33,980 nucleotides of DNA from a virus (taxonomy: Duplodnaviria > Heunggongvirae > Uroviricota > Caudoviricetes). A program made the translations under genes and the position numbers. Each line of letters begins with the position of its first letter. The first letter of the stretch is position 1. The stretch lies in IMG/VR virus record IMGVR_UViG_2869970738_000009. One strand, 5' to 3'. This document shows, piece by piece, positions 20,458-33,980 of the stretch. A model generated the notes under the pieces. The model was not told the origin of the DNA, searched no databases, and saw nothing but the letters and a program-made list of their open reading frames with translations.

Positions 20458-21275
20458 AACTGGAAGATTTACCGAAATACTACTCCCCAAAATCCCCTAG
20501 CCTGACCGATGCATCGGCCTCAACGTCAAAAGATGCGCTGAGTATCACTGATGTGATGGCCGCGCAGGGCATGACACAGAATCGGGCTGAGATGGGGTTT
20601 TCTGCGTTCCTGGGGAAAATGGGCATCAGTATGAATGACAGGGCGCGGGCAACAGAATTACTGGCAGATTATGCACTCAGTCGGTGCGATCGTGTGGCGG
20701 CGTTGAGAAAACTTCCGGCAGAAATAAAACCGGTAGTGATGCGCATTATGGCTTCGTATGCGTTTGAAGATTATGCCCGTAGCGCGGCGAGCAAAAAACA
20801 GTGCCCCTGCTGTCACGGAAAAAAATTTATTGAAAGCGAGGTTTTTACAAACAAGATCCAGTATCCGGATGGTAAGCCACCAGTGTGGGCAAAGTGCACA
20901 AAAGGCGTGTATCCGTCTTACTGGGAAGAATGGAAAAAAGTCAGGGAGGTGGTAAAAGTTGCCTGTCCGGAGTGTGGCGGAAAGGGTGAGGTTTCCACCG
21001 CCTGTAAGGATTGCCGTGGGCGTGGTGTCGCCATTCATCGTGAAGAGTCGGTAAAACGTGGTATGCCTGTTATCAGAGACTGCCAGCGTTGTGGTGGTCG
21101 TGGCTGTGAAAGACTACCATCAACGGAGGCATTTAATGCCATATGCAAAGTGACGAGTGCTATCACGCTTGATACGTGGAAAAAATCAGTGAAACGCTTT
21201 TACGATACGTTGGTGGTTCGGTTTGACATTGAAGAGGCATGGGCGGAGCGGCAGTTAAAGAGGGTAACGCGATAG
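20454..21275 (+). CDS. late-gene antiterminator Q-like protein (QuuQ type) with four CxxC motifs
   Basis: Position immediately upstream of the PR'/tR'-like promoter and terminator; N-terminus MKLEDLPKYYSPKSPSLTDASAS resembles Q-like proteins as recalled. Confidence 0.55.
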   Translation: MKLEDLPKYYSPKSPSLTDASASTSKDALSITDVMAAQGMTQNRAEMGFSAFLGKMGISMNDRARATELLADYALSRCDRVAALRKLPAEIKPVVMRIMASYAFEDYARSAASKKQCPCCHGKKFIESEVFTNKIQYPDGKPPVWAKCTKGVYPSYWEEWKKVREVVKVACPECGGKGEVSTACKDCRGRGVAIHREESVKRGMPVIRDCQRCGGRGCERLPSTEAFNAICKVTSAITLDTWKKSVKRFYDTLVVRFDIEEAWAERQLKRVTR

Positions 21276-22948: not shown

Positions 22949-23021
22949 GGCCCTTTAGCTCAGTGGTGAGAGCGAGCGACTCATAATCGCCAGGTCGCTG
23001 GTTCAAATCCAGCAAGGGCCA
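22949..23021 (+). tRNA. ileZ: tRNA with CAU anticodon, ileX/ileZ-like (tRNA-Ile2; Met not excluded)
   Basis: Cloverleaf GGCCCTT-TA-GCTC...GAGC; anticodon loop CTCATAA; T arm GCTGG-TTCAAAT-CCAGC; acceptor closes AAGGGCC; CCA not encoded. Confidence 0.75.
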
Positions 23022-23031
23022 CTATCACATA

Positions 23032-23105
23032 CCGCCATTAGCTCATCAGGAAAGAGCGCCAGCCTTCGAAGCTGGTTGCGCGGAGTTCGGGTCCCCGAAG
23101 GCGGT
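23032..23105 (+). tRNA. tRNA-Arg-like (anticodon UCG), noncanonical T loop; may be degenerate
   Basis: Anticodon arm CCAGC-CTTCGAA-GCTGG is clean; T loop TTCGGGT and one mismatch each in the T and acceptor stems. Confidence 0.45.
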
Positions 23106-23121
23106 TCATTATCTGTATCCT

Positions 23122-23198
23122 GCGTTGTTAGCTCAGCCGGACAGAGCAATTGCCTTCTAAGCAATCGGTCACTGGTTCGAATACAGTAGAACGCGCCA
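23122..23198 (+). tRNA. tRNA-Arg (anticodon UCU), CCA encoded
   Basis: GCGTTGT-TA-GCTC...; anticodon loop CTTCTAA; T loop TTCGAAT; acceptor and T stems have one mismatch each. Confidence 0.65.
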
Positions 23199-23212
23199 CA
23201 CTTATTTTCCCT

Positions 23213-23237
23213 GGCTCGCTTTTGCGGGCTTTTTTTT
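23213..23237 (+). terminator. rho-independent terminator after the tRNA cluster
   Basis: Stem GGCTCGC/GCGGGCT (two G-U pairs), loop TTTT, then T7 run. Confidence 0.55.
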
Positions 23238-23365
23238 AAATGTCTCACAATTCAGGCGGTTGACTGTTGTCTGGTTTGCGGGGAGTTTGTTAAAAGAAAC
23301 TGGCATGGTGAATCCCCCTGTGCGGAGGGGCAATCAGCGAGTAGGTATATGGGATAATCGCAGAT

Positions 23366-23463
23366 TCAGGTGCTGGTACTGAATTCACCGGGAGGCACCC
23401 GGCACCATGCAATGGCACATAGCGCCACTCTCCAGCCCCTCTCCGGAGGGGCTGTTTATATTG
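23366..23463 (+). ncRNA. putative small structured RNA (about 100 nt) ending in a strong intrinsic terminator
   Basis: Extended -10 TGGGATAAT at 23350-23358; hairpins at 23389-23403 and 23433-23454 (9-bp GC stem) followed by a U-rich tract. Confidence 0.2.
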
Positions 23464-23488
23464 ATTTTGTCAGATGTGAGTAAACTCC

Positions 23489-23824
23489 TTATGGACTTTG
23501 TTGTTTTAGCCCATAAGGACATATTTGCAGAGTGCAACGGTTATTAAAGCATTCATTCAATACGTTATCTGTATTTGTAGGGCATTCCTGGCTGTTTTTG
23601 ATTAAATTCCAGAATGTTTTATTGAATGGTACTACGTTGTAAATGGTTACAGGTAGCACTTTGTTATTGAGCATGATGCCTGTGTGAGTCAGTGTAAATA
23701 TACTTTCAGGAGGTAAGAAAGCATCCGATTGATACCAGATTATTAATTTTATTTTACTCCATATGACTGAAAAAGATATTCCGCATGATGGCTGGATAAC
23801 TGTATCAATCACAATCCACTTCAT
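23489..23824 (-). CDS. hypothetical 111-aa protein in an AT-rich cargo segment at the position where Stx phages carry stxAB
   Basis: ORF of 111 codons from ATG 23822-23824 with AAGGA Shine-Dalgarno; open frame of this length in AT-rich DNA is unlikely by chance; no recognised motif. Confidence 0.4.
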
Positions 23825-24069
23825 TTGGTTTCCTTGTTTATGCATTGCTGGTGATGTTCTGAAAAGTATAAATGATATTTTTGAATGTAAACCATAGAGC
23901 AGAATTATTTTTCTGATGTTGTTTATTGTTTATTTAAATGCAGGGTGGTTTATATCTCGTCTTGTAGTTTATCCATGCATATCTGCTTGATGATGAGGTT
24001 TTTATTTAAGGTATGGTTTTGTGTTTTTTCTGTATTACATGTCAGGTATTTTAAAGAATCATTTTTCAG

Positions 24070-28102: not shown

Positions 28103-28234
28103 ATGTCAGACAAACTCATAACGCTGGCGAAGATCCTCTGTGTAATTGTCGGCATTTCATTTTCACTAATGCTGGTTGCTCTTTTTCTTTCCATGGCCTG
28201 GATGATGTTGTCTTCGTCGGGGCTGCTGGGGTGA
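28103..28234 (+). CDS. hypothetical 43-aa membrane peptide
   Basis: Strong GGGAGG Shine-Dalgarno; sequence almost entirely hydrophobic; stop overlaps the Rz start (GTGA). Confidence 0.4.
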
Positions 28235-28704
28235 ACATAAACCGAATGCTTTCCGCGTTTACCGTTATTCTGCTGGTGGTCTGTGGTGCGCTGTGGCTGG
28301 CAACAGACCATTACCGTGATAACGCCATCACCTACAAAGCGCAGCGCGATAAAAAAGCCAGAGAGCTGGAGCTGGCAAACGCAACCATTACTGACATGCA
28401 GCAGCGCCAGCGTGATGTTGCTGCGCTTGATGCCAGATACTCAAGGGAATTAGCCGATGCGAGAGCTGAAAATGAAACTCTGCGTGCTGATGTTGCCGCT
28501 GGTCGTAAGCGCCTGCGGATCAACGCCACCTGCTCCGGTACCGTGCGTGAAGCCACCGGCACCTCCGGAATGGATAATGCAACCGGCCCCCGACTGGCAG
28601 ACACCGCTGAACGGGATTATTTCACCCTCAGAGAGCGGTTGATGACAATGCAGAAGCAACTGGAAGGGGCGCAGGAATATATCCGCACTCAGTGTATTAA
28701 CTAG
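28231..28704 (+). CDS. Rz: Rz i-spanin
   Basis: N-terminal transmembrane helix then coiled-coil periplasmic domain; contains the embedded +1-frame Rz1. Confidence 0.7.
28472..28642 (+). CDS. Rz1: Rz1 o-spanin lipoprotein, embedded in Rz
   Basis: [24 protein letters not shown]...; lipobox VSAC, Pro-rich mature region. Confidence 0.65.
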
Positions 28705-28952: not shown

Positions 28953-29296
28953 GCGACCTTATTAACCATGCGCGGTATTGTCGCCGTATCCCCGCATTAA
29001 CAGAGACCGCAGCCCGACCGGGAGACTCCTCTGCGCGAGTGTGCGGGGATAATCAAAAACGATACACACCGGGGTTTACCGCGTTAACGGAGCGCGGCGT
29101 TGTCCCCTCATGGTCGCTGGTCCGGTGCGATGGTGGAAGAAACCGGACGATGTGTTACCTCGCAAGCTCTGTTATGTCATGTGTCTGATTTGTGATTTAA
29201 GTCGGATAATTGTCGTTGCCATTAAGCAGAGGATTGATGACCGACAGGGTGGCATTGTTAGAATAAGACTTATTCTTATCTGTGCCGGGAATGAAA

Positions 29297-29623
29297 ATGA
29301 AAAGAAACCTTCCGTTAATTATTTTGTTGTCTTCTCTGGTTATGGGCTGTACGCAACATAAAACAGATATGCCCCGACAGTTGGTTAAGGCATTACCACA
29401 ATATCCGGCCTATGCAGCGGCAAATTATATAAAGGGACGGGTTGATGTGAGGTTTGATATTGGTGCTGATGGTACTGTCACCCGAATTGAGTTTATTCGT
29501 TCAGAGCCGCACCATCTGTTTGATGAGCAGGTTGTAAAGGCGATGGCAAAATGGCGATTTGAGAAGGACAGGCCGTGTAAAGGCGTGAAGAAAACGTTTA
29601 TCTTTAGTCCTTCCGCACCCTGA
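29297..29623 (+). CDS. lipoprotein with TonB C-terminal-like domain
   Basis: Signal peptide with lipobox LVMGC; mature part ALPQYPAYAAANYIKGRVDVRFDIGADGTVTRIEFIRSEP...FDEQVVKAMAKWRF resembles the TonB_C fold. Confidence 0.6.
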   Translation: MKRNLPLIILLSSLVMGCTQHKTDMPRQLVKALPQYPAYAAANYIKGRVDVRFDIGADGTVTRIEFIRSEPHHLFDEQVVKAMAKWRFEKDRPCKGVKKTFIFSPSAP

Positions 29624-29754
29624 TTATTTCATCAGAAATTAATTATCACTCTGTTGTTATTCTGTACATCCCGGCAGGGTAAGTCTTGTTCCGTCGGATA
29701 TGAAGATGAAATATTGTTGGAGGACAGTGGGTACCTGCTCCTGTAACCGAACGT

Positions 29755-29955
29755 TCATTTCTCGTTATTTGTCATGCTGGCCGGGCGCAGATGCGTTGCA
29801 TCTGTTGCCAGCCTTCTCCTGCAGGCTTCAATAACCCACGCTGAAAAGTTTCCTGAACCTTTCAGATCAAGAGCGATGTTAATTTGTTCAATCATCTGGT
29901 TTGGAAATCGGATGTTGCGGGTTGTTGTTCTGCGGGTTCTGTTCTTTGATGACAT
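29755..29955 (-). CDS. ribbon-helix-helix (Arc/CopG-like) DNA-binding protein
   Basis: RNIRFPNQMIEQINIALDLKGSGNFSAWVIEACRRRL has the beta-strand plus two-helix RHH pattern; start is 85 bp from the IS66 terminus. Confidence 0.5.
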   Translation of the reverse strand: MSSKNRTRRTTTRNIRFPNQMIEQINIALDLKGSGNFSAWVIEACRRRLATDATHLRPASMTNNEK

Positions 29956-30064
29956 AATGTTTCCCCATATTCAGTGTTGCTGATTTGTATTATCTGAAGT
30001 TGCTTTTACGTTAATTTGATGCAGATCAATCAATACGATAGTAAGGCAGTATGACTTTCCGTGA

Positions 30065-31545
30065 GACAGATGCTGGCCAACGTGGGATATTTAACGCGGG
30101 TTAACATCGTTGTCAGAGCCGCATGGGTGAGCTGTTGCTACACCCCGGTATTTCCACCACGGAGGCCAGCATGAACAACAATAACACATTGTACGTCGGG
30201 TTAGATGTTCACAAAGAATCGATTACTGTCGCTTATGCTATCAATTCAGAACCTGTTGAACTGATGGGTAAAATTGGCACATCACCTACTGATATTCAGA
30301 ATCTTTGTAAACGTCTCAGGTCAAAGTCATCGCAGGTCAGTATCGTTTATGAAGCGGGGCCCTGTGGTTATGGACTTTATCGTCGGCTGGTGAAATCCGG
30401 TTTTGACTGCATGGTCTGCGCCCCCTCACTTATCCCGAAAAAACCGGGGGAGCGGGTTAAAACCGATCGCCGTGATGCCATCAGACTTGTGCGTTCACTG
30501 CGTGCAGGAGATCTTTCTGCTGTCTACGTACCCGGTATTGAAGATGAGGCATTCCGGGATTTGGCCCGGGCATGGGCATCTGCCCGCGATGATTTACGGC
30601 ATGCAAGGCAACGTCTGAAATCGTTTCTTCTGGTTCATGGGGTCCATTATGTCGGGCGAGCAGATTGGGGCCCTGCACACCGACGCTGGCTCAGCAAATA
30701 CTCATTCGAAAGTCCCTGGCGACAATTAGCTTTTGACGAACACCGTCGTACAATAGAAGACCGGCAGGCACAATGTGAACGGCTGGAATCCGCCCTGAAG
30801 GAGGCCGTTACCGAATGGAGGCTGTATCCGGTAGTAGAGGCGCTGCAAGCCATGCGAGGGATTCAGTTTATTACTGCGGTTGGATTAATTTCTGAACTGG
30901 GTGATCTGACCCGTTTTGAACATCCACGACAACTGATGTCATGGTTTGGTATCACGCCATCAGAATATTCATCGGGTGGAAGCAGACATCAGGGCAGCAT
31001 TACCAAAGCCGGAAACAGCTATGCCAGAAAGCTATTGGTCGAGGCAGCGTGGAGTTACCGTCATCCGGCACGCATCAGTCCGGCAATACAAAAAAGGCAG
31101 GAAAATTTACCCCGCCCCGTCATTGACAGAGCATGGGATGCTCAACTCAGGCTTTGTAAGAGGTATCGAAAACTTCAGGCCAAAGGAAAGAATGTCAATA
31201 TTACAATTGTTGCTGTTGCACGTGAGCTGGCGGGTTTTATCTGGGATATGGGCCGAATAGCAATGTCTGTCGCACAACAACCACAATGTCACAAATAAAA
31301 AATGAGAATAACCAGTTCCCTGAAGGCGACGTAGCCCGGTACAAGAGTAACCCACGTTAGCGCTTGGCGACGGCGGAACAAAGCTGATTCGCGACGTAAG
31401 AAAGTGGCAGGCTCATATGACGGACCTCTGTAATGCGGTATCCAACCCGCGAATATCAGCGTGATTCACCGTCGGATTTACTGCTACGTCGCCCTCAGGG
31501 AATTAAACCTAAAAAGAAAATCGTCAAAATTAGAGATTCCGGTTT
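30065..31545 (+). mobile_element. IS110-family element nested in the IS66 terminus (boundaries approximate)
   Basis: About 1.5 kb lies between the IS66 IR and the tnpC stop, where tens of bp are expected; contains one DEDD-type transposase gene; flanked by inverted 14-mers TATGACTTTCCGTG (30050-30063) and CACGGAAAGTCATA (31547-31560). Confidence 0.4.
30171..31298 (+). CDS. IS110-family (DEDD) transposase
   Basis: N-terminus MNNNNTLYVGLDVHKESITVAY typical of IS110/IS1111-family transposases; GGAGG Shine-Dalgarno. Confidence 0.85.
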   Translation: MNNNNTLYVGLDVHKESITVAYAINSEPVELMGKIGTSPTDIQNLCKRLRSKSSQVSIVYEAGPCGYGLYRRLVKSGFDCMVCAPSLIPKKPGERVKTDRRDAIRLVRSLRAGDLSAVYVPGIEDEAFRDLARAWASARDDLRHARQRLKSFLLVHGVHYVGRADWGPAHRRWLSKYSFESPWRQLAFDEHRRTIEDRQAQCERLESALKEAVTEWRLYPVVEALQAMRGIQFITAVGLISELGDLTRFEHPRQLMSWFGITPSEYSSGGSRHQGSITKAGNSYARKLLVEAAWSYRHPARISPAIQKRQENLPRPVIDRAWDAQLRLCKRYRKLQAKGKNVNITIVAVARELAGFIWDMGRIAMSVAQQPQCHK

Positions 31546-31590: not shown

Positions 31591-33183
31591 TTATTTATTG
31601 GTGAGTGCTACGTTCCATGGCAGGAGTTCGTCAACACGGTTGGAAGGCCATTCCGGCAGTACGCTCAGGATATAGCGCAGATACGCTTCCGGATCGATAC
31701 CGTTCAGTCGGCAGGTGCCGATCAGCCCGTACAGTAGCGCACCACGCTCTCCACCGTGATCGCTGCCGAAGAACATAAAGTTTTTCTTTCCGAGACAGAC
31801 TGCACGAAGCGCTCTTTCCGCGGCATTATTATCCGCCTCAGCCAGACCATCATCACTGAAGTTGCACAACGCAACCCAGTGCTTCCTGATATACCGGAAC
31901 GCATCTCTCAGACGGCATTTTTTCGATAACGTGTGTTCTTTCTCCTGCATCAGCTTATACAGGGAAGTCAGTAGCGGTTTACTCTGCATTTGCCTGACCG
32001 CCAGGCGTTCAGACACCGGCAACCCGCGTATTTCGTGCTCGATGGCGTACAGCTCACCGATTAGTTTCAGGGCTTCTTCCGCTGTCGCGCTTTTGGTACT
32101 GATATATACATCGTGGACTTTGCGCCGCGCATGAGCCCAGCATCCTGCTTCCGTCAACGCGCCGCCTTCTCGTTCGGCACTGAACAGCCGATCGTAACCA
32201 TTAAACGCATCTGCCTGCAGGATACCCCGGAAGGGACTAAGGTGCTGCTCCGGATGTTTACCCTGATGGTCCGGTGAGTAGGCGAACCAGACCGCCGGAG
32301 GCTCTGGCGAACCGGCATTCCTGTCATCCCGGACATACGTCCAGATATATCCTGTTTTCGCCTTCTTCCTGCCCGGTGCCAGCACTTTTACTGGTGTGTC
32401 ATCAGTGTGAACTTTGCGGCTGTTCATCACATAACGGTACAGAGCATCATTCAGCGGCGTCATTAACTGGCAGCACGCGTCAACCCAGTTGGAGAGTAAT
32501 GCACGGCTCAGTTCGACACCCTGACGGGCAAAAATTTCACTCTGACGATACAGTGGCAGGTGTTCGCAGTATTTTCCCGTTAACACGCGGGCAAGTAACC
32601 CCGGGCCCGCGATACCACGCTCTATCGGACGGGATGGTGCCGGTGCTTCAACGATGCAGTCACATTTTGTACAGGCTTTTTTTACCCGTTCTGTGCGGAT
32701 CACTTTCAGAGCGCTGCTCACCAGTTCCAGTTGTTCTGCGCTGACTTCCCCCAGATAATCCAGCTCACCGCCACACTCCGGGCAACAGCTTTCTTCTGGC
32801 TCCAGGCGATTTATTTCGCGGGGCAGATGCTCCGGTAACGGGCGACGATGACGAGACTGTCGCAACTGGCGGGGAACCTGCGGATCGTCTTCCCGCCCAC
32901 TGTAACGATCACTGTCCTGTTCGCGTTGTTTCAGCAGGGCCTCAGCCTGTTCAACTTCACGACGCAGTTTTTCAGAACGGGTACCGAACAGCATCCGGCG
33001 CAGTTTTTCTATCTGAGCCCGCAGATGTTCTATTTCCCGTTCATCTTCTTCGATCTTTTCTTCGGCGCGGGCCAGTGCAGAGCGCAGGAAGGCCTCCGTC
33101 TCTTCAACCAGACTCAGTTGCTGGTCTTTCTGACGGAGCTGGCATTCCAGTTCTGCAATGCGAATGAGGTATTTTTGATTCAT
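31591..33183 (-). CDS. tnpC: IS66-family transposase TnpC
   Basis: 530-aa protein with N-terminal coiled coil, CxxC zinc motif (CPECGGEL) and DDE core. Confidence 0.85.
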   Translation of the reverse strand: MNQKYLIRIAELECQLRQKDQQLSLVEETEAFLRSALARAEEKIEEDEREIEHLRAQIEKLRRMLFGTRSEKLRREVEQAEALLKQREQDSDRYSGREDDPQVPRQLRQSRHRRPLPEHLPREINRLEPEESCCPECGGELDYLGEVSAEQLELVSSALKVIRTERVKKACTKCDCIVEAPAPSRPIERGIAGPGLLARVLTGKYCEHLPLYRQSEIFARQGVELSRALLSNWVDACCQLMTPLNDALYRYVMNSRKVHTDDTPVKVLAPGRKKAKTGYIWTYVRDDRNAGSPEPPAVWFAYSPDHQGKHPEQHLSPFRGILQADAFNGYDRLFSAEREGGALTEAGCWAHARRKVHDVYISTKSATAEEALKLIGELYAIEHEIRGLPVSERLAVRQMQSKPLLTSLYKLMQEKEHTLSKKCRLRDAFRYIRKHWVALCNFSDDGLAEADNNAAERALRAVCLGKKNFMFFGSDHGGERGALLYGLIGTCRLNGIDPEAYLRYILSVLPEWPSNRVDELLPWNVALTNK

Positions 33184-33213: not shown

Positions 33214-33564
33214 TTACAACATTGTCAGTGCGTTAAGGCGGGATGTTTTTGGCTGACGCCAGTCCAGCTTATCGAGGAGCATTGCCAGTTGCTAGCGGGT
33301 AATGGATACCTTGCCGTCACGCACAGCAGGCCAGATAAACTGGCCTTCCTCCAGGCGTCTGGTGAACAGGCACAGACCATCAGCATCAGCCCACAGGATT
33401 TTAATCATGTCACCCCGTCGGCCACGGAAGATGAACAGGTGACCGGAGAAGGGATTATCATTCAGCACATGCTGTACCTGTTCACCCAGCCCGTTGAAAG
33501 ACTTACGCATATCGGTTATCCCAGCAACGAGCCAGATGCGGGTGCCTGACGGGAGTGAGATCAT
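33214..33564 (-). pseudogene. tnpB: IS66-family TnpB (Orf2) with in-frame amber codon at 33292-33294
   Basis: ORF stops at ...GKVSITR*; the same frame continues QLAMLLDKLDWRQPKTSRLNALTML* to a second stop at 33214-33216. Confidence 0.55.
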
Positions 33565-33980
33565 CGTCCCCTCCCGGTCAGTTCACGGATCAACACTGTG
33601 AGCAGCTCTGGTGAAGGATTTTCCAGCGTCATGTTACCGTGACGGAACTCCACCTTGCAGGAGCTGGCACTAACTGTAGTCTGAGTAGATAAAGACGGAG
33701 TAAGAGCAGCCACCGGTTCTTTCGGCTCATCCGGCGTTATCTCCACAGGTAATAATTCAACGCCAGTGTCAGAAGAGGTTGTTACCGGAAGACGCCGCGA
33801 TATGCGCCCTTCGTTCTGCCAGAGCCTGAGCCATTTGAACAGCAGGTTATCATTGATATCGTGTTCCCGGGCAATACGGGCAACAGAGGCTCCTGGTTGT
33901 GAAGCCAGTTTAACCATTTGAAGTTTAAACTCATTTGAAAATGATCTGCGGGGTTCTGCAGATAATGCTTTCTGTTCCAT
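33561..33980 (-). CDS. tnpA: IS66-family TnpA (Orf1)
   Basis: 139-aa HTH protein; 4-bp overlap with tnpB; ATG is at 33978-33980. Confidence 0.75.
   Translation of the reverse strand: MEQKALSAEPRRSFSNEFKLQMVKLASQPGASVARIAREHDINDNLLFKWLRLWQNEGRISRRLPVTTSSDTGVELLPVEITPDEPKEPVAALTPSLSTQTTVSASSCKVEFRHGNMTLENPSPELLTVLIRELTGRGR

Follow-up and report, generated by a model that had tools for sequence, protein, structure and literature searches.

A prophage cargo gene for a small predicted lipoprotein with a TonB C-terminal domain: a possible TonB-box decoy

Why would a lambdoid prophage carry the receptor-binding end of the TonB protein of its host, placed on a lipoprotein signal? The question is raised by IMG/VR record IMGVR_UViG_2869970738_000009, a 33,980-nucleotide stretch of Caudoviricetes DNA that we refer to as the window. 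It is an Escherichia coli-type, Shiga toxin (Stx)-phage-like lambdoid prophage, and behind its lysis genes lies a short gene on the + strand. An original prediction, made from the sequence alone, described the product as a lipoprotein with a TonB_C-like domain and proposed that it could shield the lysogen against TonB-dependent phages and colicins. Here, TonB-CTD lipoprotein (CTD, C-terminal domain) is the working name for the product of the coding sequence (CDS) 29297..29623 (+). The features discussed are collected in Table 1.

The match of the protein to the TonB CTD lies far beyond chance, in sequence as well as in fold. Pfam TonB_C (PF03544) is matched with E=9.1e-15 and 55.3 bits against a cut-off of 24.6, and TIGR01352 with 55.1 bits against a cut-off of 27.1. 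A phmmer search of the PDB sequences returns the TonB CTD of E. coli and Salmonella at E~1e-15 with no gaps, and the ungapped alignment to E. coli TonB residues 153-235 has 36% identity. According to NCBIfam and the phmmer search, the protein is closest to enterobacterial TonB, i.e. the host's own protein. In the residue map the YP motif is kept (Y36-P37, corresponding to TonB Y163-P164), and so are the TonB glycines. The aromatic core is formed by F53, F75, W86, F88 and F103, equivalent to TonB F180, F202, W213, Y215 and F230, with Y215 replaced by F.

To compare the fold, we used an AlphaFold2 model obtained with 13 homologues, in which the predicted local distance difference test score (pLDDT) is >94 across the domain. 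In Foldseek, the model superposes on 79 residues of 1u07_A with 0.8 Å and on 2gsk_B, which is TonB in complex with BtuB, with 1.0 Å and a template modelling (TM) score of 0.92; it also matches 2grx_C (TonB bound to FhuA). According to the model, the domain has the alpha/beta fold of the TonB C-terminus, a three-stranded sheet packed against two helices, and it carries the YP motif that goes with it. The TonB_C pattern, which had been read from the letters only, is thus borne out by the Pfam, TIGR01352 and PDB matches and by the structural comparison (0.8-1.0 Å). The last beta-strand corresponds to TonB beta3 and keeps its pattern, and the chain ends 4 residues short of the TonB end in a proline-containing tail, SPSAP. 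In TonB, beta3 is the edge strand with which the TonB box pairs, in a parallel beta-augmentation that chiefly uses backbone hydrogen bonds (PMC6699858).

The gene had been placed at 29282-29623 on the + strand. The open reading frame (ORF) is indeed there, both in the sequence and in the ORF list, and offers three in-frame starts, GTG 29282, ATG 29291 and ATG 29297. The last of them is most likely the start of the CDS and GTG 29282 probably too early, because ATG 29297 is the only start kept in the phage 21 homologue, where it is preceded by the same (A/G)GGAA motif and the first ATG aligns with ATA, and because the cluster's RefSeq proteins have a length of 108 amino acids (aa). These proteins start with MKRNL and are 95-97% identical.

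The N-terminus agrees with the rule of the PROSITE PS51257 type for lipoproteins, i.e. a positive N-terminus, then a hydrophobic core, then the lipobox [LVI][ASTVI][GAS]C, whose Cys falls at positions 15-35. Here MKRN is followed by a hydrophobic core and the lipobox LVMG-C (codons 29336-29350), and Cys18 is the predicted lipidated N-terminus. The signal check therefore agrees with the LVMGC lipobox of the original prediction. Residue +2 after Cys18 is Thr, not Asp. Under the Lol +2 rule of E. coli, Thr at this position predicts outer-membrane sorting, and the TonB-CTD lipoprotein is predicted to be sorted there.

The likeness to TonB (P02929; 1u07, 1xx3, 2gsk, 2grx) covers the CTD fold, the YP motif, the aromatic core and the beta3 edge strand, and it ends there. 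Where TonB has its anchor, its spacer and its coupling to ExbBD, the TonB-CTD lipoprotein carries a lipoprotein signal, and it is phage-borne rather than part of the tonB/exbBD system. With 108 aa and a domain that begins 7 residues after the putatively lipidated Cys, it has neither an N-terminal transmembrane anchor nor a proline-rich spacer. The full-length TonB equivalogs NF008080-NF008084 reach at best 73.6 bits, far below the cut-off of 315, and match over only the C-terminal ~85 profile positions. The missing anchor, the missing spacer and the equivalog scores below cut-off rule out a TonB energy transducer; a protein without transmembrane anchor and spacer can have no ExbB-ExbD coupling and no energy transduction.

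Could the gene then be a non-functional remnant of a captured tonB? An older database label, 'partial tonB-like membrane protein encoded within prophage CP-933N', reads this way, some database entries say partial or fragment, and only the last ~85 TonB residues are covered. The pattern of divergence makes this extremely improbable. Compared with the phage 21 allele (71% amino-acid identity), the ratio of nonsynonymous to synonymous substitution rates (dN/dS) is 0.12 at a near-saturated synonymous divergence (dS ~1.5). The lipoprotein signal that replaces the TonB N-terminus looks purpose-built and is kept across genera. The gene is present in 1616 of 5426 complete E. coli genomes (~30%), full-length in 1612 of them, and such population data are the opposite of frequent inactivation. 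The TonB-CTD lipoprotein is a real gene product under purifying selection.

Two alleles account for the E. coli copies. The window type (>=95% nucleotide identity, i.e. at least 95%; protein WP_000828068.1, with O157 and O103 strains among its carriers) is found in 414 genomes and also in Stx1a phages, Lys8385Vzw and JLK-2012, and the phage-21 type (~73% nucleotide identity) in ~1200 genomes. A narrow-alignment scan of viral contigs returned only near-identical E. coli prophage loci. The exhaustive profile search gave 4702 TonB_C proteins at E<1e-3, and its best matches include proteins of ~110 aa with the same design. A strict lipobox is present in 15 of the 18 short relatives examined, none of which has Asp at +2, and the linker measures 7-14 residues across the short lipoprotein relatives. 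The lipobox and the short linker are conserved across genera, and the conservation spans the whole fold, edge strand included.

On the + strand of the window, the gene of the Q antiterminator (20454-21275) is followed by a DNA methylase, three tRNAs, a NanS-p-like esterase, DUF826, a P21-type holin, DUF1327, a lysozyme, Rz/Rz1 and the TonB-CTD lipoprotein gene. As everything from Q through Rz/Rz1 lies on the same strand as the gene, it is in late-operon orientation, and the location directly downstream of the lysis cassette that had been proposed for it is correct. In intact relatives (CB6837, Lys8385Vzw, phage 21, JJ1887, CFT073 and a Klebsiella phage with a homologue 41% identical) the gene invariably has the lysis cassette on one side and the small terminase subunit on the other. 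In a three-way alignment, prophage SF-088, the closest relative overall, has both flanks in common with the window and a different small ORF in the slot, therefore the gene rides on a swappable cassette. Given this presence or absence between syntenic prophages, with sharp homology boundaries, the TonB-CTD lipoprotein gene is a prophage cargo gene (moron). The slot had been described as that of the lambdoid conversion genes bor and lom. This applies to bor, which lambda and phage 21 have at this place (bor/iss directly adjoins the gene in phage 21 and in the prophages of JJ1887 and CFT073), but not to lom, which in lambda lies among the tail genes.

The same position has probably contributed to a different label. 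The protein matches phrog_1267, 'Rz-like spanin', with E=1.3e-42, and a lipoprotein beside the lysis cassette, on the late-operon strand, might be taken for a lysis accessory or spanin-type protein. We find such a role very improbable. The window prophage and phage 21 each have a separate Rz/Rz1, the protein is a globular TonB_C domain instead of a short proline-rich o-spanin, it has no C-terminal membrane segment, unlike a unimolecular spanin, and the closest syntenic prophage does without the gene. The separate Rz/Rz1, the globular domain and the lack of a C-terminal hydrophobic segment rule out the label itself, which is most likely a carry-over from position and lipobox. The phrog_1267 members are TonB_C lipoproteins from phages with separate Rz/Rz1, and the label is a likely error that would spread as phage genomes are annotated.

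What could such a protein do? The mechanism that we tentatively favour, although at somewhat less than an even chance, is that of a TonB-box decoy, an unpowered mimic of TonB. The signal peptide would be cleaved and Cys18 lipidated, and the protein is predicted to be attached to the outer membrane through its inner leaflet. The 7-residue tether would hold the complete TonB CTD at the periplasmic face of this membrane, where TonB boxes emerge, and the free edge strand, the equivalent of beta3, would pair by beta-augmentation with the exposed TonB boxes of transporters or of incoming group B colicins. In this way it would compete with the few TonB molecules of the cell. Both the irreversible adsorption of T1/phi80-type phages and the uptake of albomycin, group B colicins and some microcins would be dampened. 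As TonB-box binding relies mostly on backbone hydrogen bonds, the fold and a free edge strand may suffice for it.

The dominant-negative effect of periplasmic TonB fragments makes the decoy idea plausible. Engineered fragments consisting of a signal peptide and TonB 33-239, 103-239 or 122-239 inhibit TonB-dependent transport, including that of ferrichrome, and TonB-dependent growth (bioRxiv 10.1101/2020.01.05.895219). In function they come closest to the proposed mechanism, as they too place an unenergised TonB CTD in the periplasm. The engineered fragments are soluble, longer and overexpressed, whereas the TonB-CTD lipoprotein is natural, minimal and, by prediction, lipid-anchored. Any effect would be conditional or partial, exerted during induction, when the Q-dependent late transcript reads through the gene, or at a low level in the lysogen, and would not be a constitutive shut-off. 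We consider this probable because the gene is on the late-operon strand, its candidate promoter is weak and its carriers keep a working TonB.

Several observations weigh against a decoy. At the position of TonB Q160 the window protein has L and phage 21 has Y; the Klebsiella homologue retains Q. According to the alignment and the residue map, the R158 equivalent is K and the R166 equivalent is an invariant Y. From TonB genetics and structures, we take Q160, R158 and R166 to be receptor-contact or TonB-box recognition residues. A tether of 7 residues may not be long enough for the domain to dock in the canonical way. PADLOC gives no meaningful match for the TonB-CTD lipoprotein. Upstream of the gene, promoter-like matches are no more numerous than in shuffled sequence. 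Further, the uropathogenic E. coli CFT073 carries a phage-21-type homologue (C_RS07335), and Torres and colleagues (2001, cited in PMC3091784) reportedly found that TonB-dependent systems are required for virulence in uropathogenic E. coli. The strain was reportedly CFT073. As CFT073 carries the homologue and yet reportedly depends on TonB, a strong constitutive block in lysogens is unlikely, and any block would be weak or conditional.

The same difficulty is met if the target is TonB itself. The domain might form an edge-strand heterodimer with the CTD of host TonB and trap it at the outer membrane. The phenotype, less TonB function, would be that of the decoy, with another target and a more favourable stoichiometry, as TonB is far scarcer than its receptors. 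The 36-38% identity to the E. coli TonB CTD and the 0.8 Å superposition on 1u07, a dimeric crystal form, are consistent with such a pairing. The physiological relevance of TonB CTD dimers is debated, however, and CFT073 carries the homologue although TonB is reported to be needed there. Altogether, we rate a TonB trap as quite unlikely.

The last point against an anti-phage role comes from outside the phages. Single chromosomal homologues of ~110 aa are found in Raoultella, Enterobacter, Serratia grimesii and Erwinia typographi. Those of Raoultella and Enterobacter adjoin lacZ-lacI, that of Serratia grimesii lies between a CxxCxxCC protein and dsbB, and Pfam scans of the neighbours show housekeeping contexts for the chromosomal homologues. 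When lysis and terminase proteins served as tblastn queries, no phage gene came up within 6 kb of the Raoultella, Serratia, Erwinia and Enterobacter homologues. The protein thus belongs to a small Enterobacterales lipoprotein family that has been picked up by prophages, and is not a phage-restricted invention. Since these homologues sit in ordinary neighbourhoods, the ancestral or family role need not be anti-phage. Directly downstream of the Raoultella homologue there is a gene for a DUF1440 membrane protein (L085 6738-7301). Klebsiella phage ST13-OXA48phi12.4 has a DUF1440 gene as well (L004 1277-1903), ~3 kb upstream of its own homologue, which may be a coincidence.

A lipoprotein that serves host fitness or the envelope and leaves TonB alone would fit these contexts. 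In such a role peptidoglycan, another envelope protein or a host factor would be bound in the periplasm, with the TonB_C fold as a generic module. The chromosomal homologues in housekeeping contexts, the receptor-contact side chains that are not conserved and the TonB function that carriers retain all argue for it. So does the neighbourhood: the gene adjoins bor/iss in phage 21, JJ1887 and CFT073, within the pathogenicity island PAI-icd, and offers a parallel to Bor/Iss, a lipoprotein linked to serum survival. On the other hand, an alternative ligand is indicated by none of our results, the domain is nearest to genuine enterobacterial TonB and not to divergent TonB_C-like modules, and the whole fold is conserved, edge strand included. 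We regard an envelope role as unlikely, and return to the decoy as the preferred reading.

The comparison with Bor/Iss holds for the slot after Rz/Rz1, for the small outer-membrane lipoproteins, for the status as cargo genes and for the immediate neighbourhood. The folds are unrelated, and the orientation differs: the TonB-CTD lipoprotein gene is on the late-operon strand, whereas bor/iss is read from the other strand and is expressed on its own in lysogens. In extraintestinal pathogenic E. coli (ExPEC), the phage-21-type protein WP_000830178.1 adjoins iss in an icd-integrated, phage-21-like prophage (JJ1887, CFT073). Phage 21 carries sitABCD (locus L113 12968-16417), and so does the icd-integrated prophage of JJ1887 (L115 2785-6234). 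SitABCD is a TonB-independent Fe/Mn importer. The Sit system could compensate if the TonB-CTD lipoprotein dampens TonB-dependent iron uptake. The ExPEC element is named 'PAI-icd (Iss, Sit system)' (PMC7545054). Because iss, sitABCD and the TonB-CTD lipoprotein gene share one prophage lineage, their co-occurrence is not independent evidence.

In the biological role proposed for it, the TonB-CTD lipoprotein is closest to other small phage-encoded lipoproteins. T5 Llp (bioRxiv 10.64898/2026.03.26.714494) and phi80/N15 Cor (PMC11436027) both belong to the outer membrane, in its inner leaflet, and act on FhuA from the periplasmic side. They show one-receptor specificity, whereas a TonB mimic would hit the shared coupling step. 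No homology to Llp or Cor is detected, as the Pfam and PHROG scans give only TonB_C-type families, phrog_1267 and phrog_34172. The TonB-CTD lipoprotein might be a natural, outer-membrane-anchored dominant-negative TonB, providing superinfection and bacteriocin exclusion at the coupling step of all TonB-dependent transporters instead of at one receptor. This wider reading is doubtful.

If the protein does disturb TonB coupling, it would be a new class of prophage exclusion, with a broad spectrum because the TonB step is shared: one small protein would make the cell broadly tolerant of group B colicins, microcins and TonB-dependent phages. It would then bear on phage therapy, as TonB-dependent receptors are used by many coliphages, both therapeutic and model ones, on the susceptibility to bacteriocins and siderophore-antibiotics, and on iron physiology in pathogens. 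In a bolder extension, the co-carried sitABCD of phage 21 and of the ExPEC icd island would offset the iron cost. If TonB function is left untouched, the gene is still a conserved and unstudied neighbour of the virulence-associated iss.

The sequence itself is already known. Thousands of database records label it 'TonB family protein' or 'TonB C-terminal domain protein', and a gene that is common, including in Stx-phage-like prophages and in the iss/sit PAI-icd of the ExPEC strains CFT073 and ST131 JJ1887, has been overlooked under such generic labels. Its function appears to be unaddressed in the literature: full-text searches, which cover subscription journals thinly, found no paper on the gene. 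The claim of an undescribed exclusion protein stands in part, as no paper on a phage exclusion protein of the TonB_C fold was found, while the sequence had long been annotated. What is new is the TonB_C domain in a minimal prophage-borne lipoprotein; the fold and the dominant-negative principle were known before.

Table 1. Positions of the features discussed. Coordinates are those of the window, except for the homologue loci in the last row, which are given with their own locus.
Feature	Position	Strand	Basis
TonB-CTD lipoprotein CDS, 108 aa + stop (most likely start)	29297..29623	+	ORF list; start conservation in phage 21; RefSeq length; dN/dS
Candidate promoter: ATGACC, 16-nt spacer, TAGAAT, TG extended -10	29237..29264	+	Consensus scan
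Shine-Dalgarno-like GGGAA, 5 nt before ATG 29297	29287..29291	+	Read from sequence; AGGAA in phage 21
Predicted lipoprotein signal peptide, residues 1-18, MKRNLPLIILLSSLVMG followed by C	29297..29350	+	Rule-based lipobox match
Linker TQHKTDM, 7 residues, from predicted lipidated Cys to domain	29351..29371	+	TonB alignment from P26 = TonB P153; low pLDDT
TonB C-terminal domain, residues 26-104 = E. coli TonB 153-231	29372..29608	+	Pfam, NCBIfam and PDB matches; AlphaFold, Foldseek; residue map
Last beta-strand, residues 94-104 CKGVKKTFIFS = TonB beta3	29576..29608	+	DSSP strand 96-106 (110-aa numbering); superposition on BtuB/FhuA complexes
Swappable cargo cassette, approximate extent	29146..29795	+	Three-way alignment with SF-088
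Rz (i-spanin)	28231..28704	+	Pfam Phage_lysis, E=7e-50
Rz1 (o-spanin), embedded in Rz	28457-28642	+	Pfam Rz1, E=1.5e-19
YlcI/YnfO (DUF3950), convergent right-hand neighbour	29755..29955	-	Pfam DUF3950; RefSeq annotation of homologous loci
IS110- and IS66-family transposases and a further transposase helix-turn-helix ORF	30123-31298 (+), 31591-33183 (-), 33561-33980 (-)		
Non-phage homologue loci	L085 5998-6333 (Raoultella), L091 5896-6333, L087 5995-6321, L088 1597-2004		

Part of the candidate promoter, TGTnAGAAT, is kept in phage 21, and no terminator was found after the TonB-CTD lipoprotein gene. A perfect 8-1-8 palindrome, AGAATAAGACTTATTCT (29260-29276), built as AGAATAAG-A-CTTATTCT, overlaps the candidate -10 and lies ~20 nt before the start codon. 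We considered it as an operator or a Fur-like box and rejected it; its right half is absent in phage 21, therefore it is not a conserved operator. An upstream stretch that contains GATAAT agrees with the Fur consensus at ~10 of 19 positions, by eye.

Between Rz and the cassette, ~190 nt of non-coding sequence (28959-29145) are ~90% conserved with phage 21 and with SF-088, the latter having no TonB-like gene, and the block looks like a conserved module boundary. As a structured RNA it was rejected, having no Rfam match and an ordinary fold energy (z = -1.15), and the small ORF that runs over it (CPT_21_72 in phage 21) was discarded because its protein conservation is confined to the first residues.

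To the right of the gene, the homology to other prophages ends near 30040 and transposases follow, therefore the window prophage is truncated before the terminase; the window contains neither a terminase nor any structural genes. To the left, downstream of Q and the methylase, a tRNA cluster (22949-23198; Met-CAT type, Arg-TCG, Arg-TCT) is typical of Stx phages. It is separated by ~870 bp (23199-24069) from the NanS-p-like esterase gene, a stretch with a 118-aa ORF (23489-23845, - strand) that has no Pfam match. The ~870 bp are too short for stxAB, hence the prophage looks like an stx-negative relative of Stx phages.

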